A DNA stretch of 32,000 bases, from NCBI GenBank assembly GCA_964640155.1, contig CAZXEQ010000003.1, positions 74,189 to 106,188 on the forward strand. Direction: 5' to 3'. Positions 2,061 to 32,000 of this stretch are shown here, in pieces. A program made the position numbers and the translations under genes. Origin of the DNA: an uncultured bacterium. Its GTDB lineage: Bacteria > Auribacterota > JACPWU01. The notes under the pieces were generated by a model. It was not told the origin of the DNA, did not search any database, and worked only from the letters and a program-made list of their open reading frames with translations. Each line of letters opens with the position of its first letter. The stretch's first letter is position 1.

Positions 2061-2717
2061 TCAAGAACTAAAAAATGAAAGCAGCTCCTGAGGTACGTTA
2101 ATAAGAGCTTTTGCTCCACTTGTAATGAGTTCTTCAGCAGATCGAAAACCCCATGCGGCACCCACGGGATGCATTCCTGCAGCACAAGCTGTTTGCATGT
2201 CTATTTTGGTGTCTCCAAGAAAAATGAATTGATGGGGAGCTAGTTCACATTTTTGAGCAATTTTAAGGGCTGCTTGAGGATCAGGTTTTTTGGGACTGGT
2301 TTTTAATGCTCCTTGAACGATTTCAAAATTCCATTCAGAAAGGAATTTTTTAACAATCACTTTTGTAAAGTCGTCTGGTTTGTTTGAAAGAATAGATATT
2401 TTAATTTTTTGATGTGCGAGTTCTTTTAATAGCTCTGGAATGCCTTTATAGATTTTAGTTTTACTGGCCCATCGTTTTGCGTATTCTAGGCGCATTAACT
2501 CAACACATTTTTGAATGTTTGAAGGTTGACGGTTGTTTTTGGGTAAGGCTTGCTCAGCTAAATATTCGACTCCTTCGCCTACGAATAACTTATAAGCCGA
2601 AGGCGCATGGGTGGGAAAACCCAGTTGGATGAGAACCTGATTCATAGAATCAGCAAGATCATCAAGTGTATCGAGCAAGGTCCCATCTAAATCAAAGATA
2701 ATGGCTTTATAAGTCAT
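2061..2717 (-). CDS. HAD-superfamily hydrolase, phosphoglycolate-phosphatase-like
   Basis: ORF track, 218 aa. HAD motif I is IIFDLDGTLLDT. ILSNKPD and LGDTKIDMQ resemble the later HAD motifs. An AAGGAAAG Shine-Dalgarno-like sequence precedes the ATG. Confidence 0.85.
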   Translation of the reverse strand: MTYKAIIFDLDGTLLDTLDDLADSMNQVLIQLGFPTHAPSAYKLFVGEGVEYLAEQALPKNNRQPSNIQKCVELMRLEYAKRWASKTKIYKGIPELLKELAHQKIKISILSNKPDDFTKVIVKKFLSEWNFEIVQGALKTSPKKPDPQAALKIAQKCELAPHQFIFLGDTKIDMQTACAAGMHPVGAAWGFRSAEELITSGAKALINVPQELLSFFSS

Positions 2718-2751: not shown

Positions 2752-2915
2752 CATGAATCCCGCTAAGAGGCAATCCACGGAGTTACCTCCGTGGATTGCC
2801 TCTTCGCACTCCTTCGAGTGCAGTCCCGATTCATATAAAAAATATCAGGAGGGACGGGGACAGGCGCTCCAGCGCTTGCGTTTACAAGATCCCACGGACG
2901 TAAGTCCATGGAGCT
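2752..2915. repeat. Cluster of GC-rich hairpin/palindromic mini-repeats in a divergent intergenic region
   Basis: Perfect 16-bp stem GAGGCAATCCACGGAG-ttac-CTCCGTGGATTGCCTC (2767..2802). GCACTC-cttc-GAGTGC (2806..2821). GCGCT-cc-AGCGC (2864..2875). CCACGGAC-gtaa-GTCCATGG (2892..2911), related in sequence to the first stem. Markedly more GC-rich than the flanks. Confidence 0.7.
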
Positions 2916-3044: not shown

Positions 3045-3539
3045 ATGTCTACCACTTTAAATGTTGAAGCAAGTGTTGAGGATTTTTTTAAGACAGATCA
3101 TGATCGCTTAGATGATTTATTTTTCCTTTTCCGAAAGTTTAAGAAATCTAATTTTTTAAAATCCATAGAATTTTTAAAAAGATTTGAACACGGACTTTTA
3201 CAGCATATTGCTTTGGAGGAGAAGATCCTTTTTCCTTTATTCGAAAAAAGATCTGGAATGATGGGTGTAGGACCGACCATTGTGCTTAGAAAGGAACATG
3301 AAGTTATTAAGGAAATGGTGAAGACGCTTTGTGATAAGTTTCAAAAAAGAATTTTTCAAGATAATAAAAGTGAAGAACAATTTATTTCTTTTCACTCTCA
3401 ACATCATAAAAAGGAAGAAGGGATTATGTATCCTGCCATTGATGGGATGTTGGAAAAATGGGAAATAGTAGATATTATAAATAAAATTGAAAAAACAAAA
3501 AATATGCTTCATAAGACATGTTCTGGAATGATACCTTGA
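3045..3539 (+). CDS. Hemerythrin-like (HHE cation-binding) domain protein
   Basis: ORF track, 164 aa. Spaced His/Glu motifs HDRLDDLF, HIALEEKILFP, EHEVI and HHKKEEGIMYP fit a hemerythrin four-helix metal site. GGAGG lies upstream of the ATG. Confidence 0.75.
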   Translation: MSTTLNVEASVEDFFKTDHDRLDDLFFLFRKFKKSNFLKSIEFLKRFEHGLLQHIALEEKILFPLFEKRSGMMGVGPTIVLRKEHEVIKEMVKTLCDKFQKRIFQDNKSEEQFISFHSQHHKKEEGIMYPAIDGMLEKWEIVDIINKIEKTKNMLHKTCSGMIP

Positions 3540-12471: not shown

Positions 12472-12579
12472 AAGTGATTTTTGAAAATATAATAGATTAC
12501 ACGCAGTTGTTAAATAAAGGGTCTGTCGCGCCATGAATAGACCTACTCATGTAGAAAAATGTGAAACCAGGAGGTTTAT

Positions 12580-19477: not shown

Positions 19478-20542
19478 TTGATTGCGACTTCGGATCTTCG
19501 TCTTGTTTTTTGGGAAACGACGGCTGGATGCAATCTAGCCTGCATCCATTGCCGTCGGCTAGAGGTATCGAAAGAGCTTTCAAAAAAAGATCTTTCTTTT
19601 TTCCAGTCTCTGGAAATGATCGACCAAATTGCAAAAACTGGAAAACCCATTCTCGTCTTGTCAGGAGGTGAGCCCCTTTTTCGAAAAGATATTTTTGATT
19701 TGGCAAGATTTGCAAGAGCTAAAGGGCTTGAAGTTGCTTTGGCTTCTAATGGAACGCTGATCGATGATTTGATGGCAAAGAAAATTAAAGATTCTGGAAT
19801 CCGAAGAGTTGCCATAAGTTTGGATGGCCCTAACAGTCAAATTCACGATACTTTTCGAGGAGAGTCCGGAGCTTTTGAAAGGGCTATTCGAGGCTGCCAG
19901 GCTATTCGAAAGGCCGGAATCAGTTTGCAAATTAACACTACATTAACTCAGCATAATCAAGATCATCGGGATGCCATTTATGATAGGGTGATGGATTTAG
20001 GTGCGGATGCTTTTCATCTTTTTATGCTGGTTCCTGTGGGATGCGGTCTTGAAATTGCAAAAAGTCATCAGGTCAATGCCCAAAAATATGAAGAAATTTT
20101 ACAATGGCTTTATGAAAAATCTTTGGAACAGAAAATCCATGTTCGAGCAACCTGTGCCCCGCACTATTTTCGTATTTTACGACATCACGCAATAAAAGAG
20201 AAGCGGCCCATGTCTTATTCAAAACGGGGAATGCAGGCGATGACTCGAGGTTGTTTGGCCGGAAGCTCCATTTGTTTTATTTCTCACGAGGGAAAAGTTT
20301 TCCCCTGTGGCTATTTACCCCTATCGTCTGGAACTGTACCCAAAACATCTTTTGAGCAGATATGGAACACATCTGATGTTTTTCAACTCTTAAGAAATAC
20401 ACAGAACTTAAAAGGCAAATGTGGAATGTGTGAATTTAAGAAAGTTTGTATGGGATGTCGCGCAAGGGCTTATTACCAGACAGGTGATTATTTAGAAGAG
20501 GAACCCTTTTGTGTGTATGAGCCTCAAGAAAGGAAATATTAA
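19478..20542 (+). CDS. Radical SAM/SPASM protein of the NirJ/AhbC/AhbD family (AhbD-like, tentative)
   Basis: ORF track, 354 aa, TTG start. CNLACIHC (CxxxCxxC) cluster motif and C-terminal CGMCEFKKVCMGCRARA. Confidence 0.8.
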   Translation: MIATSDLRLVFWETTAGCNLACIHCRRLEVSKELSKKDLSFFQSLEMIDQIAKTGKPILVLSGGEPLFRKDIFDLARFARAKGLEVALASNGTLIDDLMAKKIKDSGIRRVAISLDGPNSQIHDTFRGESGAFERAIRGCQAIRKAGISLQINTTLTQHNQDHRDAIYDRVMDLGADAFHLFMLVPVGCGLEIAKSHQVNAQKYEEILQWLYEKSLEQKIHVRATCAPHYFRILRHHAIKEKRPMSYSKRGMQAMTRGCLAGSSICFISHEGKVFPCGYLPLSSGTVPKTSFEQIWNTSDVFQLLRNTQNLKGKCGMCEFKKVCMGCRARAYYQTGDYLEEEPFCVYEPQERKY

Positions 20543-20544
20543 AA

Positions 20545-21756
20545 ATGATCGACCTTACACGTCTTTATTGTAATGAGAAAACAGCAGGTGAGAAAATTCG
20601 TTATGAATGGCGAGAAAAAGAAAAGGATGTACTTCAATCAGCCATGGACCGGCGTCCTGTGGTTGTTTGGAATATGACTAGGACCTGTAATCTGAAATGT
20701 ATGCATTGCTATTCAGATTCAGAAGGTAAGATCTATCCAGGTGAATTAACAACAGATGAGGCTTTGGCTGTTGTTCATGACTTGGCGCAATTTAAAGTTC
20801 CTGCTTTGCTCCTTTCCGGGGGAGAACCCCTTTTAAGAAAAGATCTTTTTTTGATTGCACAAGAAGCAAGACGATTGGGGCTTCGTGTCACTTTATCGAG
20901 TAATGGAACTTTGATCACACGAGAGATTGCCGAGAAAATCAAGGAAGCAGGTTTTATTTATGTGGGTTTGAGTTTGGATGGCATTGGAGAGGTTCATGAT
21001 CACTTTCGAGGTGTCAAAGGTGCTTTTAAAAAAACTCTTTCTGCTATTCGACATTGTAAAGAGGTAGGACAAAAGGTGGGTTTGAGGCTGACCATGACGC
21101 GTCATACCATTCAAAATCTTGATGAAATTTTTAATCTTATGATTACAGAAAAAATTGATAGAGCCTGCTTCTATCATTTGGTATTTACAGGTAGGGGAAG
21201 ATTTTTAAAAGAGGAGGCTTTATCTCGAGATGAATTGCGAGAAGCGATGGATCTCATTATAAAATGGACGAAAAATTTGCATCTTTTAGAAATAAAAAAA
21301 GAAATACTCACTGTTGGAAATCCTGCAGATGGTGTTTATCTTTATTTGAAACTTCTCAAAGAAGGTAGAAAAGACAAAGCACAAGAAGTTCTGGATCTTA
21401 TTACTTTGAATGGTGGAGGTCAGTTTGGTTCAGGTGTAGGGTTAGGATGCATCGACTTTTTTGGAAATGTTCATCCGGATCAATTTTGGATGACCCAGAC
21501 TTTGGGTAATGTGAAAGACAAACCCTTTAGTCAGATTTGGCAAGATGTTAGTCATCCCCTGATGAAGGGATTGAAAAATCGCTTACCTCTTCTAAAGGGA
21601 AGATGTGCTTCTTGCTTTTGGAAGGCTCAATGTGGGGGAGGTCTTCGCACCAGGGGCTATCTTGCGACACAAGATCCATGGGCTGAAGATCCAGGCTGTT
21701 ACTTGTCTGATGAGGAAGTTTTTAATAAATTTGCTACGCGTTCCACAGCATTCTGA
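20545..21756 (+). CDS. Radical SAM protein of the NirJ/AhbC/AhbD family (NirJ/AhbC-like, tentative)
   Basis: ORF track, 403 aa. LTRLYCNEKTAGEKIRY...RPVVVWNMTRTCNLKCMHCYS is a typical NirJ-like N-terminus. C-terminal CASCFWKAQCGGG. Confidence 0.8.
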   Translation: MIDLTRLYCNEKTAGEKIRYEWREKEKDVLQSAMDRRPVVVWNMTRTCNLKCMHCYSDSEGKIYPGELTTDEALAVVHDLAQFKVPALLLSGGEPLLRKDLFLIAQEARRLGLRVTLSSNGTLITREIAEKIKEAGFIYVGLSLDGIGEVHDHFRGVKGAFKKTLSAIRHCKEVGQKVGLRLTMTRHTIQNLDEIFNLMITEKIDRACFYHLVFTGRGRFLKEEALSRDELREAMDLIIKWTKNLHLLEIKKEILTVGNPADGVYLYLKLLKEGRKDKAQEVLDLITLNGGGQFGSGVGLGCIDFFGNVHPDQFWMTQTLGNVKDKPFSQIWQDVSHPLMKGLKNRLPLLKGRCASCFWKAQCGGGLRTRGYLATQDPWAEDPGCYLSDEEVFNKFATRSTAF

Positions 21757-22106
21757 ATTTCCGGAATATTATAAGGTTTATTAATAAATTCTGCAGCACC
21801 TTCCTTAATAGATTCCGCATACACCCCCCAATCACCGAAAGCAGTAATTAAAATAACATAAGTTTTAGGAGAATGCTTTTTTGTATATTTTAAAACTTCA
21901 AGACCATCGACTTTGGGCATACTGACATCTGTAAAAACAATATCAAAATTGTTTTGATGAATCAGTTTTAAAGCTTCTTCAGATTCGGTGGAGACTTTCA
22001 CATCTCGACCTTCCGCTTTTAAAATGGTATGTAAAATTTCAGCCTGCTCAGCATTATCGTCGATGACAAGAATTTTTAAAGGCTTCATATCTATCTCCCT
22101 TTCCAC
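21699..22106 (-). CDS. Stand-alone response-regulator receiver (CheY-like)
   Basis: ORF track, 135 aa. VIDDN acidic pocket, FTDVSMPKVDG phospho-acceptor Asp, ILITAFGD, KPY Lys. Confidence 0.85.
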   Translation of the reverse strand: MEREIDMKPLKILVIDDNAEQAEILHTILKAEGRDVKVSTESEEALKLIHQNNFDIVFTDVSMPKVDGLEVLKYTKKHSPKTYVILITAFGDWGVYAESIKEGAAEFINKPYNIPEIQNAVERVANLLKTSSSDK

Positions 22107-22330
22107 AGTTATTGTAACATAGCAAATTAAATTTGAATTAATGATATAGAAACTTAGTGCAAGGTAGAAGTTTTTATTTTTAAGTTTTTTAATTTATTCT
22201 ATAACTTATTTATTAAGAGGTAATTACAAATTATTTATTATATGGGCTATTTGTCTTTTGAGCTATTTTGTGCTATGTTAACTAAAGTGTGTAAGGGGAA
22301 ACTGAGGTGGGTAACTAGGGGAGTTTTTTA

Positions 22331-25300
22331 ATGAGAAGTGGTAGCTCTTTCTGGCATGTTTTTTTTAGAAAAATAAATTCTTGGATTATCATTTTTTCAT
22401 TTCTTTTAAGTTCTATTCCAGAACTTAATGAACCACTTTGGGCTCAAACAACTTTTTCCAAAAATGCCTTACCTGCTCAAATATTTTCTCCTGAAACTTT
22501 TTCTCATTCTTGGTCTAAAAAAATCAATTCTCTAGAAACTCCAGATTTAGATTTGGGTGAAATTTATCAGGGACAAACGAATGTGGGTATTTTTTTAATT
22601 CGTGACCTGCATTGTCAGCCACAAGCTCAACTTAAAGTTGCCAGAGGAATAGAAAAATTTTGTGAATTAGCAGGCGTTTCAAAAGTTTTTATAGAGGGAG
22701 CAAGTGATGAGATCAACATGGATCTTTATCAAGCATTTCCTGATGCAAAAATTAGGCATCTTGTGGCGCTTCATTTTTTAGAAAAAGGATATCTTACGGG
22801 ACCTGAATTTTTAAGCATGGAAATGGGAAATAAAAGTCAGTTTAAACTTTACGGGGTTGAAAACTCAAAGCTATATTTAGAAAATTTTGACGCTTTTCAA
22901 AAAATAAAATCTTTTTATAAGAAAAATAAAAAGATTATTGAACAAGTGAGTGAAAAGTTAAAAAGTTTAAAAAAAGAAAAAATTTCGAAAAATTTAAATA
23001 ATTTTATGGATCAATGGGAGGCTTGGCAGAATGGTGAGCTGAGTTTGCCTGATTTTCTTGCCAGAGTGGAGCCGTTAATTAAAGAGAAGGGTCAGAATAT
23101 TGAAGGAAGCCAGAAGATTTTAAAATGGTGTTCTTGGATAAAAGAAGCCAAGGGTTTAAATAGTCCAAAAATCCAACAAGAGCTTAATTCCTTCTTGCAT
23201 GAAATGGAGAAAAAACTGACTCAAGAATCTTTGAAAAATCTTGCCCCCTATCGGGGACTATCCTTACAGGACTATCTCTACGAGACTGCAAAAGCCCGTA
23301 AAAGATTGAAAAATCTTGTTGAGAAAACTTTGAAATATCGCTTGGGAAAAATCTCGCCAAAAAGTTATTTAGAGTATGTGAAGAGGCTTTATGAGAATCA
23401 TACCCAATCCTCTAAAAGTTTTGATCAAGCGTTTTCTGCCTTGGCTTTCTGGTATGTGTCTTTGGAGGAAGGGGAAGAGATGAAGCGTTCGAATATTTCA
23501 AAGATATTAAACCGTGTGATGGATGATTTAACGGATCAATGGGCAAAAGAAGAGGGATCTCAAGCCTTTATCGCTTTGTATAAGGATTGGGAATTATTAA
23601 AAAAAGGATTTCGATTGGAATTTGAGCGAAATGAAAGAAGGCAATTTTCTTTGTGGATAAAGAAAACAGGTTGGAAAAATTTTAGTAAAGATTCTCAAGA
23701 ATTAGGGATTGTTCTAGATGAAGAAAACTTTGAAAAAATCATTCAGAATATAGATCAATTTTATGATCTTGCCATCAAGCGTGATCATGTGATGGTGAAT
23801 AATCTTTTGAAAAAAGTGAAACAACCCACAATCCACCATCCTCAAATCACTGTTTTAATTGCTGGGGGTTTTCATACAGAAGGAATTCAAAGACTGCTTA
23901 AAAAGAAAGGGATTTCTTACGCTGTTTGGACACCCAAGATGACAGGCGAATTTGATAATCATCTTTATGAAGAAAGAATGATTGAACAGGCTCGTGCGGT
24001 GAGGTCCAGTTCTGCGAGTTTCTCATTTGATCGTAAACGAATAATAACCCCTCCACCTCCCCTTAAATTAAGGGGAGTGAAAATGAAAGAGGAAGACTCC
24101 CCTCTTAAATTAAGAGGGGTGGGGGGAGTTATATCAAAAAAAGTAGAAAAGCTTTCTGCTGCTTTGATTTTGGATAATATTTTGGAGATGTTAGGAAAAG
24201 AGGCCTTTGATCAAGCAACGTTTCGACATCGGGTTGAGATTTTAAGAAGATTAATGCAAGACTTGAGACGGGATGTCATTGCGAGGGAAGCTGATTTATC
24301 GGCTGACCGAAGCAATCTTGTTTTAGAAGACGAGATTGCTTCGCCTACGGCTCGCAATGACACGCGAGCTAGCCAGGGAAATTATTTTTCCGTGAATGAG
24401 GTTGTCGAAACATGGCTTGCTGAAATACGTGGGGAAGAAAAAAATATTTTAGGAAAAATGCAATGGGATGACATTCGTCTCCTTTTTGAGGCTTTGGATC
24501 CGGAAGGGGTTATGGCGGATGATCAATTTGATCCCAATAATGAAATTCAAAGAGGATTATATATAGAAGCTGTTGAACAGGCTTATGGAGAATTATTTCC
24601 CGCCCGCGTTGCGTTGACTAAGGCTTATTTTGATTTGCGATCTCAAAGGGAAGAGGCTGACGCTTCAGAAGTTTCTCCAGATGGAGTTCGTATTTATCGA
24701 GGGAAAGAGACTTTGGAGCTTCTAGGGATGGATTATCCAGAATTTCAAAGATTTATTAGGGCTCTTCTGGCCTTTGAAGAAGAGATCAAAAACGACTCTC
24801 TTTTTATCGCTGCTTCGAGTCGATTGATTTCTATGAGAACTGGGTGGCGTATGGCACAAGATGTTTTAGAAATGACTAAGAAATTTAAGGATATGGAAAT
24901 AAAGAATCCTTTGGGATATGCCTTAATATATGCTTTTGAAAATAATTATTCTGATTTGCTCGACTCTATGGCTGTTGGAGACCAGATGATTCGCGTTTTT
25001 ATAACGCACTGTGCTTTATGGTTGGGGGCTGACTTTTTTGATAGAACTCAGCATGCTGAAAGAAATATTTTGAGAATATGGTATAAAATTCAGAAAAATG
25101 GAACTTTAAGTTATGTTGAAGAAAAAGTCGCTCGTGCTCTCATGGGCAATAAACCTGTTCTTTTTGAAGAAGAGCCAGGATCAGATCCAGAACTTATGGA
25201 AGCCGTTCATTTTTTTGGAAAGGATGCACAGATCAGTGAGATTCACCTTCATCCTTTTACAGATGATGCGCATTTGATGGGACGGCGAATTCCAAGAGAG

Positions 25301-28096
25301 CAAGGTGAAGGACTTGAATATGGTTATGGAGAGATTTTAAGAGCTGTTGAAGCGGCTCGAAAGAATCCAGGCAAAAAACATATTCTTATTTTTAAAAATG
25401 TGGAAGCCATGGAACCCGGAATCAGAACCATGCTTCAAGAGATTTTGAGAATTCGTGAGATTCGAGATCCACATTTGGGAGGATCAGTAAGGTTGCCAGA
25501 CAATATTCAATTTCTTTTTACAATGGAAAAGGGAGTGAATTTGGAAGATGACTCCTTTCTGGATCGTGTGTTGATTAAAGTTATTCAGTCCAATAATCCT
25601 CAAAAAGAGGAAGAAATCCAAATTTCGTTAAATCCCCCTCTTGAATCAAGAGGGGATAGGGGAGTTAATGAAGATGTAACCCCTCTAACTTCTCTTGATC
25701 CAAGGGGAGAGATTGAAGTTAAAGAGGGAAAACTCATTCTGGCAGGAACTGAAATTCTCCTTGCTGAAAAATTTCACGATTTAACTTCAGAAAATTTACA
25801 TGACGAGCTTTACAAGCGTTTGGGTCTTATTCTAGATGAAGAGACCATTAAAATGTTGATCGCTATGCAAATGATGGTTAATCAACATAAGCCCATCTTA
25901 AGAATTGAAGGAGCTTCTGGAGTTGGAAAAACATTTACAGCTCGCGCATTTGCATCTTTGACCGGAAGAGACTTTTCTTCCAATCCTGTGAATCGAGCCA
26001 CAGATATTTCTGAATTTATTGGAGGATATGAAGCCAATGAAGAAGGAAATTTTAAATTTAATCCTCGTACTCTTTTTAGAGAAGTGCTTGAAAAGGGAGG
26101 TGTGATTGCTTTAAGCGAGCTCAATGCCTTAATTGATGAAAATGATAAAGTGAGTTTAGCTTGGTGGCTTCAGCAATTGGCAGAGTCTAAGCCAGACGCA
26201 GAGGGTTTTCGTACGATTTATTTAACGGAACTACCTACAGCAGCTGGAAAATTTAAGCGTTCTGAGCTTGATAAAATTCGAGTTTCTCCAAAAGCTTTAG
26301 TCATTATTGATACCAATCCTGAAACAAATTATGGGGCACGTGGAACTTTCCCCAAAAGATTTAAAGAAGCAACGCCGGTTTTGAAAATTGGGGAATTTAT
26401 TCAACAAGAAAAAGTTTCCCCTCCCTCAATTTCCACCCCCCTCACCCAACCTCTCCCACCAGGGGAGAGGGGACAGCCTGAAATTTCTGATGCTGCGCAG
26501 AAAAATCTAAAGAAAATCCAGCAACATTTAAATCTCTTTTTAAAATTCCCATGGGAAGTGGAAGGCAAAATCATTTCTGAGGGAATTACAGATGATCTAG
26601 AGCGCAACGAACTTTCTGAAAAGCTCGCAACTCTTTTTAATAAAATTGTTCAGGCCTATTTAAGTCAAGATCTGGGTAAAGACGAAGATATTATTTTTAC
26701 TAAGAGAGAATTGAAACGTTTGGCTGAAGATGTGATGTACGCTAAAAAAGTTTTAAAAAAATCTCATGACGAAGCTTTAATGTATGGAGCTAGGATTCAT
26801 TTGGTCTCTCGATGGAAGAAGCAAACAGATCGTGACAAGGCGTTAGAAATCATTGAAGCAGAATTCGCAAAGGGGAGAGCTCCTCCCAGTCTGGCTCCCA
26901 AAAATCTCCAAGAATTTATTCTGGATCAAAGTATTGATAAAAACAGAACGGTACATGTCTATGCAGAACCTCAAACAGATGTTGCAAAAGAATTAGAAAA
27001 ATTAAAAGCTGCGCGTCCCAATTTACGTGTAGTTGTAATTCCTGCCACAGATGAAACCGATCGTTTCATGTTGGAAGGAGGATTTATTCCAACTGAAGCA
27101 GGTGGGATGGCCTTAGCTCGTGGGGTATTGGGACGTTTAATTCATGCTGCCAACAATGCTCCTCCTGGAGAAGAAGTTCTTTATGTGCTCGATAACGCAC
27201 ATAATATCCCTCCTCAAGAAATTATAGCTCTCAATGAATTTTTGCAAGACCGCCTTTTAAAAATTAAAGGCAGAAATGAAGGGAAACTTCCTCTCAATGC
27301 ACATATTCTTTTCTTAAGCCGTCAGGATTCAGAAACAACCTGGTCTCAGGCTGAACAATCTCGAGCAGTTCCCTACGGTTATTCTCCTTCCTATGATTTT
27401 AGACAAGAATTTGTTGAACAAATTAAAACGAAAGCTCTTGATTGGAATCCTTACGCAGAGAAATTTTATAATGTTTTGTCTGAGTTTGAACGCAAATATC
27501 GAGAAGTATTAGAAGATAAAGGTGAAGCTTACCGAGGCAGAATTTCAGATGCCAGGTGGAAAGCGTTTCTAGAGCGTGTTGTGTTCTGTGCTGGGCATAC
27601 ACGCGTTGAAGATTATTCAAGCTTGATTCGAAGGATAGAAGAAGAGCTCGATCTTTTTTATCTGCGTGGACTAGACAATGCAAGTATTCAGTTACCCTTA
27701 GAACAATTGCGTACAGGTTTTCGATCGGTGCAGTATTTTGTGAATCAGGATGTGGAAAAAAGGAAAAGAGAAGAGAGAGTGATTCAGGGTCAAGGAAAAG
27801 GGGGCTCGGAACAAAAAGAAATTCAAGAAGAAAGTGTTTATGAGAGCGTGGTTCGTTTGCAAGCTGAAATTGCAACCAGTGAGCCAGAGGCAAGAGAAAG
27901 ATTTGCTCGAGAATTAGCGACATTTATGAATAAGAAAAGCAACGATGTGGAATGGGTAGAAATTTTTGGCATTCATAAGATTGATTTAAAACCTGGAGAT
28001 TTGTTCTATTCGAATCCTGAAGAACTTGAAGAAACACGTATGGGTATAGTCATAACTGAGTCAAGATGCCTTTCTACTGGAGACGGCAATGAGATA
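22331..28096 (+). CDS. ORF A, 1,921-aa protein: N-terminal signal-anchor, about 500-aa N-terminal domain, helical regions and three AAA_5 (MoxR/dynein/midasin-like) ATPase modules
   Basis: Not in the ORF track. I translated every codon from ATG 22331 (GGGGAG 7 nt upstream, in-frame TAG at 22316..22318) and found no stop until TAA 28094..28096. Key motifs are GASGVGKT (25910..25933) and LVIIDTNPETNYGARGTFPKRF (an AAA_5-like sensor region). Confidence 0.8.
24044..24132. repeat. Palindromic element E1, translated in frame in ORF A (ITPPPPLKLRGVKMKEEDSPLKLRGVGGVI)
   Basis: Inverted termini ATAACCCCTCC / GGGGGGAGTTAT. Two internal palindromes, CCCCTTAA-A-TTAAGGGG and CCCCTCTTAA-A-TTAAGAGGGG. GC-rich relative to the flanks. 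Confidence 0.7.
24275..24361. repeat. Palindromic element E2 (87 nt), translated in frame in ORF A (VIAREADLSADRSNLVLEDEIASPTARND)
   Basis: Nested inverted repeats. Outer pair GTCATTGCGAG (24275..24285) / CTCGCAATGAC (24351..24361). Inner pair CGAAGCAATCT (24308..24318) / AGATTGCTTCG (24333..24343). Confidence 0.75.
25631..25712. repeat. Palindromic element E3 (E1 family, rearranged halves), translated in frame in ORF A (LNPPLESRGDRGVNEDVTPLTSLDPRGE)
   Basis: CCCCTCTTGA-A-TCAAGAGGGG (25635..25655), followed by GGGGAGTTA, a short spacer, TAACCCCTC and a degenerate second palindrome. Confidence 0.6.
25910..25933 (+). other. The only canonical Walker A (GASGVGKT) in ORF A
   Basis: gga gct tct gga gtt gga aaa aca, read in the ORF A frame. 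Confidence 0.8.
26436..26474. repeat. GC-rich hairpin element E4, translated in frame in ORF A (PLTQPLPPGERGQ)
   Basis: CCTCTCCC-acca-GGGAGAGG (26450..26470), embedded in a C-rich then G-rich tract. Confidence 0.55.
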
Positions 28097-29616
28097 AGTT
28101 TCCACGAAATTTCTGAAATTGTAACATTAGTAGTCCCCATACCTAAAATCACTCGCGAAAATTTTTATGATGAAGTCAGGCGGCGTCAGGAAGAAATGAG
28201 GACGACCAATGATTTGGTATACAAAAAGAGATTGGTGGCAGAGCTGAAATGGATTTTAGATAAATATGGTGATAAAGGTGAATGGGTTGAAGCAAGGCAA
28301 GAACAAGAAGCTTTGAATAAAGGAGATATTTTTGATTCCACTGAGGTTGTGAGCAAGGCTTTGCCTTTTCATTTTCCTGAAGGGGGAATAGTGGCATGTG
28401 AGAGATATCAAGATAAATTTGTGGTAGCGGATACCAACGGAAATATTTTTATGCTCGACACTCAAGATCCACAAGGAAAGTTAGTGCCGCATGCTTACAA
28501 AGGAGAGGGAATTTTAAAGATGCGAGTCAACGGGGATAAGCTTTGGATCATTACAGATGAAGAAAAGCTTACAAGTATCGATTTATCCAATTCAAAAAAT
28601 CATTTAAAAAAAATAGAAAATCATTCGGGCGTACGCTCTCTTGCTACGTTTGATGGAAAAATGATTGTTGGAAAGAATAACGGAGAGGTTTGGATTGAAA
28701 GTGAAGTTTCTAAATTCTTTCCAAAGGGGTTTAGAGAGTGGTTTGAAAGATTTGATGCTGGGGCTACGCCTGTGCCTAAGTTTAGATTGAGATTATTTGA
28801 AATTCTGGCAGAAGGCACTTTGCGATTGTTTAAATTTTTCAAAAGGGTTCTAGGTCTTCCTCTTAAGAAAGTAGGCAAGTTTAAAGGAAATATCTCTGCA
28901 ATATATACGATAGAAAATCAGTTGTTGATTGTAGGAATGAATGGAGAATTAGAAATTTGGACGCCTCGAAAGAGTTGGCTAAGGTTTGTTAGCCCATTTG
29001 AGAAAAGGGTATTAAGAAAGGGCCAGAATAAAGATTTCTCAATCATTGCTTCTGAATTAATAGGGGATCGGCTATTTGTACGAAGTTCAGGGCATGAAAT
29101 TCTTTCATTTGATTTAAAAACTCCTCAAATAGGATTTACTCTTCTTGGAAAAGTAGAGCCTGGTCCCGCTGCTCTTTTTGCCTGGGGAAATAAGCTTGTC
29201 ATTCCAGAATACGATGGATCTTTAAAAGTATGGGATACTGAAAAACCTGAAATAGGATTGCAAAGAGTAGCTTCTTATGAAGCAGGTTTTGCTCTAACGG
29301 CAGTACCGCTAGGCGATAGACTGATGATAGGAGGCGGTCGTGAGTTACAAGTCTATGAAGCCAATCCACGAGGGGTGATGGTAGATGATCAAAATTTTGT
29401 TTCGATGGCGAGTGGAGAGATTTATTCCCGTAAAGATTTATCTACTGAAGTAACTTTGCGTTTGCCCATGCCTCAGGTTGATCCGGAAAATCTTCTTCAG
29501 AGAATTCAAGAACTACAAAAAGAAATCCATGCAAGTACTCCTACTCAAAAAGAAATAATAGCAGCAGAGTTAATTTATAGGATAAAACATTCGTTCTCGA
29601 CAGGCTCGAACAGTGA
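28066..29616 (+). CDS. ORF B, 516 aa: linker, small beta segment and a 7-bladed WD40-like beta-propeller; possibly a frameshifted continuation of ORF A
   Basis: Not in the ORF track. The frame is -1 relative to ORF A. ATG 28066 follows TGA 28057..28059. All codons were checked and the frame is open to TGA 29614..29616. Blades include ADTNGNIFMLD, GKNNGEVWIE, GMNGELEIWT, EYDGSLKVWD and GGGRELQVYE. Confidence 0.7.
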
Positions 29617-29639
29617 TAGCCTTCGGGCGGAGTCGAGAA
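29594..29639. repeat. Palindromic element E6 (46 nt) carrying the ORF B stop codons
   Basis: Inverted termini TTCTCGAC (29594..29601) / GTCGAGAA (29632..29639). Inner pair GCTCGAA / TTCGGGC. Contains TGA TAG at 29614..29619 in the ORF B frame. Confidence 0.75.
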
Positions 29640-29641
29640 GT

Positions 29642-32000
29642 TTGAAAGTTGATGTAGAAAGCGTAGAGTGGATGGAATTTGATGCAGAGAAAAAGGATTT
29701 AAAAGTAGGCGATGTGATCAAAGTAAAGAATGTGATGGGACAATTTTCTGATCATTCTGAGGGTAATACCATTTTATGTAGTGCCGTTCTTCCCGATGGA
29801 AGACTACTGACTGCGGGATGGGGTTCTGTAGAGATTTATGATTCTAAAAATCCCAACAAACCATCAGTCAAAATCGTTCATTCTTCTTCTCCTTTTCAGG
29901 CTTTGGGTCTTTTACCTAATAATCGATTTGTAACAGGAGAAGCGGATGGAACTATTACGATCTATGACTTTCAGGGAAATGTTATTTGGAGTAAGAAGTT
30001 TCTACATCCACTAAGAGCCTTAGGAGTGCTTTCAGATGGGCGTATTGTGGCGGGTGGAACATGGGGGAAAATGACAGTTTATAATCCTAGTGATCCTAAG
30101 GATGAAGGAGAAAGCTTAAGCGGTTATGATGGGACGATTCATGATATTCAAGTTCTTCCAGATGATTCCATTGTTGTCGTAGGCGCTGGAGGATATGTTA
30201 AAAAGTTTGAACTCAAAGCCGGGTCAACTCCGCAATCTTTGGGTCGATATTATCAGTATGATGGTAGACAAATTATTTATAAGACAAGGCGTTTATCCAA
30301 TGGCCATTATGTAGTTGTTGGAGAAGGTGGGGCTATTAAAATTTGTGATCCCAATTATCCAGACAGTGAACCTATTCTGGTCGGCCATTATGGAAAAGAT
30401 GTTCACGCTCTTGAAATTTTGCCGGACGATACCATTGTAGTGGGTGGAGATGGAGGAGAAATTTTAGCTTTTGAACCCAAAGAAAATGCAAAACCTCATA
30501 AATTTGGAAATTATGGGAATGATATTAACATGATTCGCTATTCACCTGCGGATGGAAAGATTTTGATAGGTGGAAGAAATGGAGTGTTAGCGTTTATTGA
30601 AAAAGAGATGGTAGGAGTGATGTGCAGTGAAAAAGATTTCGTAAGCCCTATGGGTAAAAAATATTCTTTAGATCAAGTTTCTACAGATCAAGCCAAAGTG
30701 TTCATTCCAATTCCTCATGTCACCGATGAAAATTTCTCAAGTGCAGTCACTCGCTTGCAAGCTGAGATTAAAACAGCAGAAGGGGCTGAAAAGAAGAGAT
30801 TAGCTGAGGTTCTCATGCATGTTTTGAGGAAAGGGAAACCTGCCCAAAGAAAAGATGGATCCCCGATAGATACACTCGGGGATGACAAACACTCTGTACC
30901 ACTGTCATTCCCGAAGGCTTTTATCGGGAATCCATTAGAAGATAAAAAATGGATTCAGTCCCAACAAAAGAAAGAAGAGCTAGGAGTGGGAGATGTTTTC
31001 AAGACTGAAGGGGTGTTTGTAGAAAGAGTTTCTATATCAGACCGATCACGCACAATAACAACTCAAGCTGTCTTACCCGATGGACGTATTGCTTATGGTT
31101 TTGCAGATGGGTGGGTTGAATTGTGGGATCCTAAGAAACCCCATTTGGGATTTAAAAGAATAGGACAATATGCTGTAGGAAGAGGCAATCAGGAAATCAC
31201 GGTTTTAAAAGTTGTGGCAGGAAAATTATTAATTGCTGGGAAGGCTGGATATCTTGAAGTGTGGGATCCGGAACAGCCTACTCAAAAACCTTGGTGTTTG
31301 GGAGATTACAAAGAAGAAATTTATGCGATTGAAGAATTAGATGGGGAAATTTTTGTCGGTGGGAAAGGAGCAGTTATTCGATATTGGACTTTGGAAGATT
31401 TAAAAAATAAAAAAGAGATTCAGGGAGAAGTTTTGGGACAGTATGGGCATGAATTTAGCAGTGTTTTTAGTTTTCTTGTTGTGGATGGAAAACTTGTAAT
31501 AGGGGGAGGTGTTCAACTAGAATTTTGGGATTCACAAGAGCCAGAGAAAAAAATTCAAAGTACAGCAATGCATGAAGGAGCCACACACGCTTTGCAATAT
31601 TTAGATGGGAAAATTGTTGCTCTTGATTCAAGTGGGCATATCCGTTATTGGGATAAATCTTCTTTGTATGCTCAAGAATCCCAAGTCCCTTATCCTATTG
31701 GAGAGTATGGTATGAAAGCTGAAGCAATGAAGGTTTTGGATGGGAAGTTGTATGTGGGAGGATATGGAGGAGAACTTAAAGTATGGGATCCAGAGAGCTC
31801 ACGAAAAGGTCTGCACAATATATTTCAGTATCAAAATGATGAAGGAGCAAAACCCGGAACAATGAATTATATTACAACTATTTCATATCTTGAAATAGTA
31901 AACGGTCGTTTGTCTATCATAGGCTCCTCTAACGGTGTTGGTGGGGTTACTCTCTTAGAATTTTCTCCAACCGGTGTGGTGAATAGCAAGAATACTTTTA
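29642..32000 (+). CDS. ORF C (partial, open at the window end): two further linker plus 7-bladed propeller modules; start uncertain (TTG 29642 or ATG 29672)
   Basis: Not in the ORF track. The frame opens after TAA 29570..29572. All codons to nt 31999 were checked with no stop. Blades include VLPDGRLLTAGWGSVEIYD, GEADGTITIYD, VLPDGRIAYGFADGWVELWD, GYLEVWD and GELKVWD. Confidence 0.7.
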   Translation, partial: MKVDVESVEWMEFDAEKKDLKVGDVIKVKNVMGQFSDHSEGNTILCSAVLPDGRLLTAGWGSVEIYDSKNPNKPSVKIVHSSSPFQALGLLPNNRFVTGEADGTITIYDFQGNVIWSKKFLHPLRALGVLSDGRIVAGGTWGKMTVYNPSDPKDEGESLSGYDGTIHDIQVLPDDSIVVVGAGGYVKKFELKAGSTPQSLGRYYQYDGRQIIYKTRRLSNGHYVVVGEGGAIKICDPNYPDSEPILVGHYGKDVHALEILPDDTIVVGGDGGEILAFEPKENAKPHKFGNYGNDINMIRYSPADGKILIGGRNGVLAFIEKEMVGVMCSEKDFVSPMGKKYSLDQVSTDQAKVFIPIPHVTDENFSSAVTRLQAEIKTAEGAEKKRLAEVLMHVLRKGKPAQRKDGSPIDTLGDDKHSVPLSFPKAFIGNPLEDKKWIQSQQKKEELGVGDVFKTEGVFVERVSISDRSRTITTQAVLPDGRIAYGFADGWVELWDPKKPHLGFKRIGQYAVGRGNQEITVLKVVAGKLLIAGKAGYLEVWDPEQPTQKPWCLGDYKEEIYAIEELDGEIFVGGKGAVIRYWTLEDLKNKKEIQGEVLGQYGHEFSSVFSFLVVDGKLVIGGGVQLEFWDSQEPEKKIQSTAMHEGATHALQYLDGKIVALDSSGHIRYWDKSSLYAQESQVPYPIGEYGMKAEAMKVLDGKLYVGGYGGELKVWDPESSRKGLHNIFQYQNDEGAKPGTMNYITTISYLEIVNGRLSIIGSSNGVGGVTLLEFSPTGVVNSKNTF
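30857..30933. repeat. Palindromic element E5, translated in frame in ORF C (DGSPIDTLGDDKHSVPLSFPKAFIGNP)
   Basis: Two inverted hairpin units: GGATCCCCGA...TCGGGGATGAC (30857..30886) and GTCATTCCCGA...TCGGGAATCC (30904..30933). Confidence 0.7.

Follow-up and report, generated by a model that had tools for sequence, protein, structure and literature searches.

The question raised by this locus is whether a small palindrome has broken a large gene in two, or whether the gene simply reads through it. The palindrome, E6, lies in a stretch of 32,000 nucleotides (hereafter the window), and a preliminary description held that it supplies the stop codons of one reading frame (ORF B), which it thereby separates from a second (ORF C). 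The two are in fact one continuous ORF. The frame is free of stops over 22319..31999 (3,227 codons), and from an ATG at 22331 it encodes, on the forward strand, the N-terminal 3,223 codons of a giant gene (22331..31999) that extends beyond the window end. The full product, a 6,910-residue protein, is already in public data (P0025; NCBI, 357-kb contig); it is identical to the window's share of the protein, and the public gene call passes through E6 as one product. A Logan assembly also carries a single gene call, of at least 3,244 residues, with 100% identity to the window over 12.5 kb. Both of these agreeing assemblies could go back to one set of reads.

The giant protein has Pfam matches to AAA_5 and to beta-propeller/WD40 families, and its N-terminal ∼550 residues are common to giant proteins labelled Candidatus Omnitrophota. 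Going by the labels of these protein relatives, the host probably belongs to the Omnitrophota. The gene resembles the giant genes reported from that group in its conserved N-terminal region, AAA_5 domain and beta-propeller modules (bioRxiv 10.1101/2023.11.21.568195). The terms 'palindrom', 'inverted repeat' and 'in-frame' are absent from the text of that paper, and in-frame repeat patches are the feature added here.

The preliminary description was right about the 46-nt nested palindrome at 29594..29639, whose arms can be read directly from the sequence: TTCTCGAC-AG-GCTCGAA-CAGTGATAGCC-TTCGGGC-GGA-GTCGAGAA. The outer arms, TTCTCGAC at 29594..29601 and GTCGAGAA at 29632..29639, pair perfectly over 8 bp. 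The inner arms are nested 2–3 nt inside them and form a 7-bp stem that includes one G.U pair. The left inner arm, GCTCGAA (29604..29610), agrees exactly with the consensus of the repeat family described below, while the right one, TTCGGGC (29622..29628), has one mismatch to the consensus TTCGAGC; this A-to-G change leaves a G.U pair in RNA from the sense strand, and the opposite strand is mismatched there. The RNA is predicted to fold with −23.4 kcal/mol (z = −2.3), and the corresponding DNA fold is better on the plus strand (z = −2.65) than on the minus strand (z = −1.55). The ORF contains four distinct hairpins with a 60-nt minimum free energy of −21 kcal/mol or lower (five scan windows), compared with 0–5 in codon shuffles, and the stability of the E6 hairpin taken alone is not significant against such shuffles. 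What places E6 above chance is its family membership and its status as a compositional outlier, not hairpin stability.

The surroundings of E6 carry few further signals. Its flanks (...CATTCG and GTTTGA...) have no common direct repeat, and hence there is no target-site duplication of the MITE type; E6 and its closest family copies have one G on each side in common and nothing more. Rfam covariance models run over 22000..32000 matched nothing at E6 at a cutoff of E≤1. A terminator scan of 29300..29900 found no terminator-like site, the hairpin being followed by GTTTGAAAGTTGATG inside the ORF, and a promoter scan found nothing above chance. A tRNA-like T-arm reading of GTTCGAGCC was dropped, as no stem supports it.

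Relative to the gene, the TGA TAG in the loop (29614..29619) is in frame +2, and it is not read in the gene's own frame. In that frame E6 is translated as FSTGSNSDSLRAESRS (TTC TCG ACA ...; residues 2422–2437), opening with F S T G S N S D and closing with S L R A E S R (S). The codon string on which the split was based, 'agg GAT AAA ACA TTC', has one extra base, the actual sequence being AGG ATA AAA CAT TCG TTC TCG ACA. Excision of the 46 nt, which was thought to fuse ORFs B and C, makes a stop instead of removing one: deletion of 29594..29639 shifts the frame and brings up a stop at once (...IKHSV*), whereas the frame is kept at E6 only by deletions of 45 or 48 nt. The GGAG at 29629..29632 is indeed present upstream of TTG 29642, but re-initiation there is moot, because the gene is not split and E6 has no in-frame stops. 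Thus, the model in which palindrome-borne stops split an ancestral gene, with its downstream part re-initiated from GGAG/TTG, can point to TGATAG and GGAG-N9-TTG being physically there and to a sigma-70-like match from 29642, though this occurs at chance rate; given the open frame and the single public product, it is already refuted by the sequence, and we give it practically no weight. Of the proposal that a mobile palindrome split the gene, the first half stands in that E6 belongs to a dispersed repeat family, while the gene itself is intact. Programmed frameshifting or recoding at E6 was dropped as superfluous with the frame open, and RNA-level excision was dropped since removal of 46 nt would break the frame.

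To explore the relationships of E6, a loose pattern derived from it was run on metagenome contigs, which gave at least 125 sites; among the matches listed, 83 of these at least 125 are canonical nested palindromes. They define the family consensus TTCTCGAC-nn(n)-GCTCGAA-loop-TTCGAGC-nn(n)-GTCGAGAA, with a length of ∼38–58 nt. Because the family was retrieved with an E6-derived pattern, the outer arms and the left inner arm are conserved by construction; the right inner arm and the complementary spacers were left free in the search. Only a handful of sites would be expected by chance, by our estimate assuming ∼1e12 bases searched. The spacers between outer and inner arms covary across the canonical copies, with a covariation score of 0.144, compared with 0.081±0.007 for shuffles (0/500 reach the observed score) and at most 0.065 for slid controls. 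Four contigs (L092, L121, L144 and L154) hold two to three copies each. The family is mostly intergenic: 74 of the 83 listed canonical copies (∼89%) are not deep inside an ORF, as against 40% of random positions, and ∼11% of canonical copies are deep in ORFs. Many copies are diverged, and the flanks around them are extended in a lineage-specific manner.

A scan of viral contigs with the pattern gave 10 matches, all of them apparently chance or coding coincidence, and a strict pattern that included the TTCGGGC arm of E6 and proved too strict had no match in 185,579 species genomes, a set that does not contain the source genome. A literature search with family sequence strings and peptide readings returned unrelated primers only. 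These small hairpin repeats constitute a widespread family, apparently undescribed so far.

E6 could in principle be a palindrome that arose by chance in a Ser-rich linker of low complexity, unrelated to repeats or mobile DNA. Equally stable hairpins do arise in shuffled ORFs, as noted above, and the element is single: the whole 6,910-residue protein and the 32-kb window contain one family copy, a search of the window for exact or near-exact E6 46-mers recovered E6 alone, and a sensitive blastn of E6 against the window gave no further copy. Against this, a covariance model (R1), built from 60 copies in other metagenomes with E6 excluded, matches E6 at 29590..29643 on the plus strand with 33.2 bits (E = 4.6e-7; 29.0 bits on the minus strand). 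It is the sole significant R1 match in the window with filters off, and 870 kb of control loci gave none. The nearest family copies, in other organisms, are 85–87% identical to E6. One feature deviates, in that the spacers of E6 (AG ... GGA) are not complementary, unlike those of the canonical family. The same asymmetric pair is present in one other copy (L141), and AG...GAA in two (L082 and L145), so that non-complementary spacers look like a subtype feature and no ground for excluding E6. On sequence evidence, E6 is a copy of this dispersed palindromic repeat family. Two other patches in the giant gene, at 24045–24135 and 25630–25712, are related to each other and not to E6.

The composition of E6 also sets it apart from its host ORF. 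Of ∼3,200 codon windows scored along the ORF, the one at E6 has the lowest synonymous-codon score (z = −4.5), and no other deviates as strongly in codon usage. The ORF has 16 TCG serine codons; four of them lie in or directly beside E6, three within the scored 16-codon stretch, and its GC content is 56%, compared with 38.5% for the ORF. E6 is compositionally foreign to the gene that contains it.

The position of E6 was examined in an AlphaFold2 model of the region around repeat module 3 (mean pLDDT 75, pTM 0.72). A helical hairpin that is conserved across the paralogous modules (29483..29596, plus strand; model helices 24–40 and 43–61) precedes E6. It is followed by a predicted coil linker (29597..29683, plus strand; model residues 62–90), which has the E6 peptide in its first half, and then by an EW[VM]E strand and a beta-propeller whose fold is predicted with confidence. 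The model has a single long stretch with pLDDT below 50, and the E6 residues fall within it. The comparison with a paralogous linker (FMNKKSNDVEWVEIF) made in the preliminary description is real, the linker with E6 being the longer: by paralogue alignment it exceeds those of modules 1 and 2 by ∼20 residues, with only 21–30% identity among the modules. The linker of module 4 is longer still and lacks a palindrome, which shows that other causes of variation in linker length exist as well, a point that would suit a chance origin. As modelled, E6 is located in a disordered, indel-prone linker. Set against the codon-usage outlier and the match to R1, we consider a chance palindrome quite improbable.

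An orthologue of the giant gene with an E6-free linker would provide an empty site, and none was found. Orthologues of the E6 flanks were found neither in JGI metagenomes nor in an index of 5.8 billion proteins. A whole-ORF search returned relatives of the N-terminal domain only (at most 32% identity), and an exhaustive HMMER search gave the gene's own full-length product and generic propellers, nothing more. When the upstream radical-SAM gene was used to look for synteny in GTDB genomes, the nearest relative was 60% identical and no locus encoded the giant protein. Insertion at exactly this site is therefore inferred, not seen. Nor is insertion of the core alone sufficient as a full account, because 46 is not a multiple of 3.

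Empty sites are available for another member of the family. In-frame copies occur in genes for PolX (L145), MetRS (L088 and L151), YidC (L115), ComEC (L096) and a SPOR-domain protein (L164), mostly in the same reading frame as E6 ('FST[GS]SN'). The PolX copy corresponds to a 13-residue insert relative to 3au2 (E = 1e-119), and PolX orthologues at 75–85% identity are without the element. As far as sequence comparison goes, then, other genes hold in-frame copies of the family of E6, and PolX provides the empty sites. A decayed copy (L192), with its pairing partly lost, is retained in PolX orthologues only 65% identical. The element is thus present in distant orthologues and absent from closer ones, and unrelated inserts occupy the same loop in others; this pattern hints at site-specific reinsertion or precise loss.

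Among known systems, the Rickettsia palindromic elements (RPEs) are dispersed palindromes found in frame in unrelated genes, including housekeeping genes, where they are translated as an additional peptide segment and tolerated at permissive sites (PMC10969869). The E6 family is likewise in frame and translated in the giant gene, PolX, MetRS, YidC and ComEC. RPEs are ∼100–150 bp long, occur only in Rickettsia and encode peptides that are conserved and specific to each family. The E6 family differs in its length of 38–58 nt (46 nt for E6, ∼54 nt by the model), in its occurrence in many environmental contigs and in genomes that are CPR-like (Sungbacteria/Parcubacteria) or probably from Omnitrophota, and in its preference for positions not deep inside ORFs (∼89% of canonical copies); its sequence is probably unrelated to theirs. 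It also has features of REP/REPIN elements, which are associated with RAYTs (IS200/IS605-like Y1 transposases). Both are short (20–60 nt), imperfect and mostly extragenic palindromes, with many diverged copies per lineage, lineage-specific extended flanks, covariation that preserves the hairpin and no evident target-site duplication. However, the flanks and arms of the E6 family have no GTAG/CTAC-type head, and E6 and ∼11% of the family copies lie within genes and are translated, an uncommon situation for REPs. Bacterial MITEs (Correia/NEMIS, ERIC, Nezha, QMITE) sometimes lie inside ORFs, which they extend or fuse in frame (PMC10969869). The two kinds of element are alike as non-autonomous inverted repeats that are sometimes found in ORFs. 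MITEs are usually 100–400 bp long and have target-site duplications, inverted repeats at their termini and a parent IS that can be recognised, whereas E6 is a full hairpin of 46 nt with no duplication at its ends.

We favor the view, with a probability of about 80%, that E6 is a family repeat inserted in the linker of module 3 and simply translated there, an RPE-like in-frame insertion that has left the gene intact. The repeat would have landed in a length-tolerant, disordered linker at the boundary between helical hairpin and beta-propeller. Open in the host frame by chance, it would have added ∼16 residues of Ser/Gly/Asn-rich coil. Its arrival by insertion, as opposed to origin in place, is what we infer from the evidence above; the original insert must have had a length divisible by 3, unless its size was adjusted at the junctions (45 or 48 nt, and with flanks perhaps up to ∼60 nt). 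Our best guess for its mobilisation is a REP/RAYT-like process that recognises the hairpin and acts on a single strand without target duplication.

Two further explanations concern what E6 is now and whether it is really there. The hairpin could have been domesticated and retained because it does something at this site, be it as an mRNA ribosome pause between domains or as a DNA/RNA binding site, which is compatible with an origin by insertion. The lone departure from consensus pairs only in sense-strand RNA, the plus strand is better than the minus strand both in R1 score and in DNA fold, the RNA is predicted to fold at −23.4 kcal/mol, E6 is exactly at a modelled domain boundary, and the PolX copy persists in distant orthologues. 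But one substitution is weak evidence, the retained PolX copy is decayed and partly unpaired, and the spacers of E6 are not complementary; we regard such a function as unlikely. An assembly artefact, with a repeat copy misplaced into the gene during short-read assembly, is conceivable as small dispersed repeats can cause mis-joins and both assemblies may stem from one sample. Yet the two agree base for base over 12.5 kb, the frame stays open for 6,910 codons where a random mis-join would manage this one time in three, module 3 homology runs on in the flanks on both sides of E6, and 46 nt, being shorter than a read, would be spanned. An artefact is accordingly extremely improbable.

More speculatively, and in our judgment somewhat doubtful, E6 may represent a class of tiny mobile hairpins that spans phyla of ultra-small or episymbiotic bacteria (CPR, Omnitrophota), hairpins which repeatedly enter genes, survive in stop-free frames and serve as a source of loop and linker peptides. 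Such a class could take in the TTCTCGAC...GTCGAGAA hairpins as well as the sister palindromes of the giant gene, and the genes entered could include essential ones such as those for PolX, MetRS, ArgRS and YidC. If true, this would resemble the RPE process but take place well beyond Rickettsia, and with elements a third of the size.

For annotation, a false 'split gene / pseudogene' call is removed, and the locus becomes one intact giant gene. The analysis also leaves a covariance model that can be reused and a consensus for the family, whose repeats gene callers may take for small ORFs. E6 itself is a concrete, testable case of selfish or repeat DNA absorbed into coding sequence beyond the classic case of Rickettsia. 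It belongs to a family of small hairpin repeats common in environmental genomes, of which about one copy in 10 is translated inside real proteins. This bears on how unusual low-complexity insertions in proteins of CPR and Omnitrophota are interpreted, and on ideas of how giant multi-module proteins tolerate and build up linker material.

The 46-nt nested palindrome at 29594..29639 (element E6) lies within a single giant gene and is translated in frame. A six-frame stop map reveals a stop-free frame between 22319 and 31999 (3,227 codons, with an ATG at 22331) that leaves the window at its end, and position 29594 is a first codon base of this frame. The preliminary description had taken a TGATAG in E6 as the end of one gene, ORF B, and a nearby GGAG as a possible means of re-initiation for a second, ORF C. 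Both motifs are present in the sequence (29614..29619 and 29629..29632, respectively). Since the frame is stop-free through E6, and the TGA-TAG falls in frame +2 and is never read, ORF B and ORF C are one ORF. The codons proposed for the junction, agg gat aaa aca ttc, carry one extra base, the true reading being AGG ATA AAA CAT TCG TTC TCG ACA GGC …. Excision of the 46 nt, which had been expected to fuse the two ORFs, does the opposite in the true frame: deletion of 29594..29639 gives …IKHSV*, and a clean linker is restored only by 45- or 48-nt deletions. A palindrome that supplies stop codons and splits the gene is a frame-reading error. The accompanying idea of a mobile palindrome in an ancestral linker is supported as regards the insertion, while the split falls away, as the element is read through.

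The same locus is found in the Logan assembly of run SRR8893623, identical at 12,502/12,502 compared positions including E6, where the gene caller predicts one protein of 3,244 residues or more. The full-length product of the giant gene came from an exhaustive HMMER search: it is P0025, an NCBI protein of 6,910 residues from a 357-kb contig, and contains …LIYRIKHSFSTGSNSDSLRAESRSLKVDVESVEWMEF…. Predicted tryptic peptides across the E6 junctions include HSFSTGSNSDSLR and SLKVDVESVEWMEFDAEK.

E6 reads TTCTCGAC-AG-GCTCGAA-CAGTGATAGCC-TTCGGGC-GGA-GTCGAGAA and is translated as FSTGSNSDSLRAESRS. The outer arms form 8 bp without mismatch, enclosing an inner stem of 7 bp that includes one G.U pair; the predicted RNA fold has an energy of -23.4 kcal/mol (z = -2.3 compared to shuffles). 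A strict pattern that includes the TTCGGGC arm had no match among 185,579 species genomes. A looser pattern, TTCTCGAC-N0-4-GCTCGAA-N8-32-GTCGAGAA, matched at least 120 metagenome contigs, from which at least 125 distinct sites were extracted; by a rough estimate that assumes ~1e12 bases, no more than a handful of matches would be expected by chance. Canonical nested palindromes, with the right inner arm TTCGAGC and complementary spacers (TCC/GGA, TAC/GTA, AA/TT …), account for 83 of the 125 sites listed, neither feature having been demanded by the pattern. Some contigs (loci L092, L121, L144 and L154) carry 2–3 copies each.

When 60 distinct canonical copies are aligned, covariation at free positions scores 0.144, compared with 0.081 +/- 0.007 in shuffled alignments (0/500 reach the observed value) and at most 0.065 for slid partners. 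A covariance model (R1) built from the same 60 copies, none of them from the window, and run with filters off, finds E6 (29590..29643) with 33.2 bits and E = 4.6e-7, the next match in the window having E = 0.16; unrelated bacterial loci totalling 870 kb give no match. The closest copies among the matches listed (L167, L082, L151, L088 and L145) are 85–87% identical to E6. E6 is a genuine member of this family. A longer palindrome, GCCATYRCACG-TTCTCGAC…GTCGAGAA-CGTGTGRAAGC, characterizes a soil and rhizosphere subfamily (L067, L093, L097, L104, L133, L162, L170 and L173); in some lineages, the core forms the middle of an element that extends to ~80 nt. The family appears to be undescribed in the searchable literature, because full-text searches for its sequence and peptide strings gave unrelated primers only and the strings 'palindrom', 'inverted repeat' and 'in-frame' do not occur in a paper on Omnitrophota giant genes (bioRxiv 10.1101/2023.11.21.568195).

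Could E6 be a chance hairpin of a coding sequence? Counting 60-nt segments with MFE <= -21 kcal/mol, the ORF contains 4 distinct hairpins (5 scan windows), compared with 0–5 in synonymous-codon or codon-order shuffles. Hairpin stability alone does not set E6 above chance; its composition and family membership do. The synonymous-codon score of the 16-codon E6 window is the worst in the ORF (z = -4.5; lowest 0.1%), its GC content reaches 56% where the ORF as a whole has 38.5%, and 4 of the 16 TCG serine codons of the ORF lie in or directly adjoining E6, three of them in the scored window.

Among the matches listed, only 9 of the 83 canonical copies lie within an open frame at a depth of 40 codons or more, compared with 60% of random positions on the same contigs, and the family is located mostly outside genes. 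Most of the intragenic copies tabulated use the frame of E6. They occur in a bacterial PolX (L145, E = 1e-119 to 3au2; FSTGSNNTLRAKSR), where comparison with the solved structure shows a clean insert of 13 residues; in MetRS (L088 and L151, E = 9e-111 to 2csx; FSTGSN…); in YidC (L115; FSTSSNNNTLRASEASRE); in a SPOR-domain protein (L164; FSTSSNNIIRAESR); and in ComEC (L096), through the second open frame (SRLRSK…). The closest PolX orthologues (75–85% identity), from CPR, Sungbacteria/Parcubacteria by their source names, lack the element and represent empty sites. In two orthologues at 65% identity, the insertion codon and the left junction are shared, and the copy is decayed.

Several inserts occur in the PolX surface loop after 'IDKLNK' (orthologues P0175–P0214): an E6-family element in P0175, P0208 and P0210, and unrelated sequences in P0197 (FSGHPQSAGSGRGKMQKSKF) and P0207 (FSARGGSAFGGKNKKF). 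Either insertions favour this loop as a hotspot, or the site is very permissive. A more divergent palindrome of the same general type (…TCCTTCGACAAGCTCAGGAAATATCTCC…CCCGAGCGAAGTCGAGGGA; 20.2 bits, E = 0.055) is in frame in ArgRS at 20472-20552 of locus L192 (CPR genome GCA_964501445.1), with the peptide VNPSTSSGNISGEKSTRGNISRAKSRDN; ArgRS joins PolX, whose copy is on the same contig, as a housekeeping gene of this genome that carries an insert. A bAvd-like gene beside a reverse transcriptase (RVT_1) at 17633-19014 of L192 is a diversity-generating retroelement signature, unrelated to the E6 finding.

The host gene encodes an AAA_5 ATPase domain and several beta-propeller/WD40-type regions, as identified by Pfam. 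Database relatives cover only the N-terminal ~550 residues (22331-23980), at no more than 32% identity; they are proteins of 2,000–5,500 residues, many labelled Candidatus Omnitrophota, a group for which giant genes have been published (bioRxiv 10.1101/2023.11.21.568195) and which the host gene fits. The shared N-terminus heads otherwise unrelated proteins with kinase, helicase, HEAT and other regions downstream, a distribution that points to a shared module for export or anchoring. The window holds no fewer than four repeats of a module in which a beta strand and a helical hairpin (…LQxEI…) are followed by a linker, the strand "EW[VM]E", "GD[VI]F" and a propeller. E6 occupies the linker of module 3. 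The preliminary comparison of this linker with a paralogous one (FMNKKSNDVEWVEIF) was qualitatively right, because the module 3 linker is ~20 residues longer than those of modules 1 and 2; it is shorter than that of module 4. In an AlphaFold2 model of module 3 (pLDDT 75, pTM 0.72), the E6 residues (positions 61–76) immediately follow a helix (43–61) and lie within the sole long low-confidence coil (62–90), before the well-folded propeller. The E6 site is predicted to be disordered and is variable in length.

We infer that E6 entered the linker by insertion, as a tract that would have been a multiple of three, originally or by trimming. Its length may have been 45 or 48 nt; with the flanks CATTCG/GTTTGAAAG, which pair weakly, it may have reached ~60 nt, a size that would agree with the ~20-residue excess of the linker. 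Since two frames are stop-free over the 46 nt of E6, and multiple open frames are typical of the family, there is a good chance that an insertion is tolerated where extra coil is harmless. The hairpin may in addition have been co-opted for a function, such as pausing translation at the domain boundary, which does not exclude an origin by insertion. The single departure of the E6 arms from the family, an A to G change, keeps pairing only in the sense-strand RNA, and this strand asymmetry is no more than a hint of co-option.

Other hairpins are found in the gene and its surroundings. Palindromic patches at 24045-24135 (a tandem pair) and 25630-25712 are in frame (…PPPLKLRGVKMKEEDSPLKLRGVGGV… and …PPLESRGDRGVNEDVTPLTSLDPRG…), 85% identical to each other over 33 nt with the core CCCCTCTTRAATYAAGAGGGG, unrelated to E6, and among the most stable hairpins of the ORF; Rfam returned only sub-threshold miRNA-like noise for them. 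A 17-bp hairpin at 24308-24372 (CGAAGCAATCTTGTTTT/AAGACGAGATTGCTTCG, followed by GGCTCGCAATGACACGCGAGCT; translated …DRSNLVLEDEIASPTARNDTRAS…) has related strings (GAGATTGCTTCG…CTCGCAATGAC) at unrelated metagenome loci (L054, L069, L074 and L105), and from these sequence matches appears to represent another widespread family of repeats translated in the gene frame. Among 16-codon windows of the ORF, GC content peaks at 26432-26480 (69%), which contains the palindrome CTCTCCCACCAGGGGAGAG, translated as STPLTQPLPPGERGQP; similar hairpins (CCCTCTCCC-N-GGGAGAGGG) occur in Phycisphaerae locus L024. Beyond the window, residues ~4945-5095 of P0025 include the palindromic-repeat-like peptides IASSADKSASLAMT, VIPAKAGIQTSLDPGSRSH and MDSRLKPSGMT. 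Several repeat families seem to have left in-frame copies in the giant gene, as judged for the C-terminal half of P0025 from peptide strings. The strongest hairpin in the window (2762-2807; 21-nt arms, 95% complementary, 4-nt loop, -41.8 kcal/mol) is intergenic, between ORFs 2061..2717 (-) and 3045..3539 (+).

The classic case of palindromic repeats in frame in unrelated genes is the Rickettsia palindromic element, RPE (PMC10969869). E6 matches this behaviour; however, it is one third the size, is unrelated in sequence and has different hosts, and is not an RPE. By its full-hairpin architecture and mainly extragenic location, the family would appear closer to REP/RAYT-type elements than to MITEs, and its lineage-specific extended flanks and lack of target duplication are likewise REP-like, but the GTAG head of REPs is absent. 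E6 is neither a canonical REP nor a MITE. The finding involves no new mechanism; it provides an RPE-like case in poorly known phyla, together with a usable covariance model.
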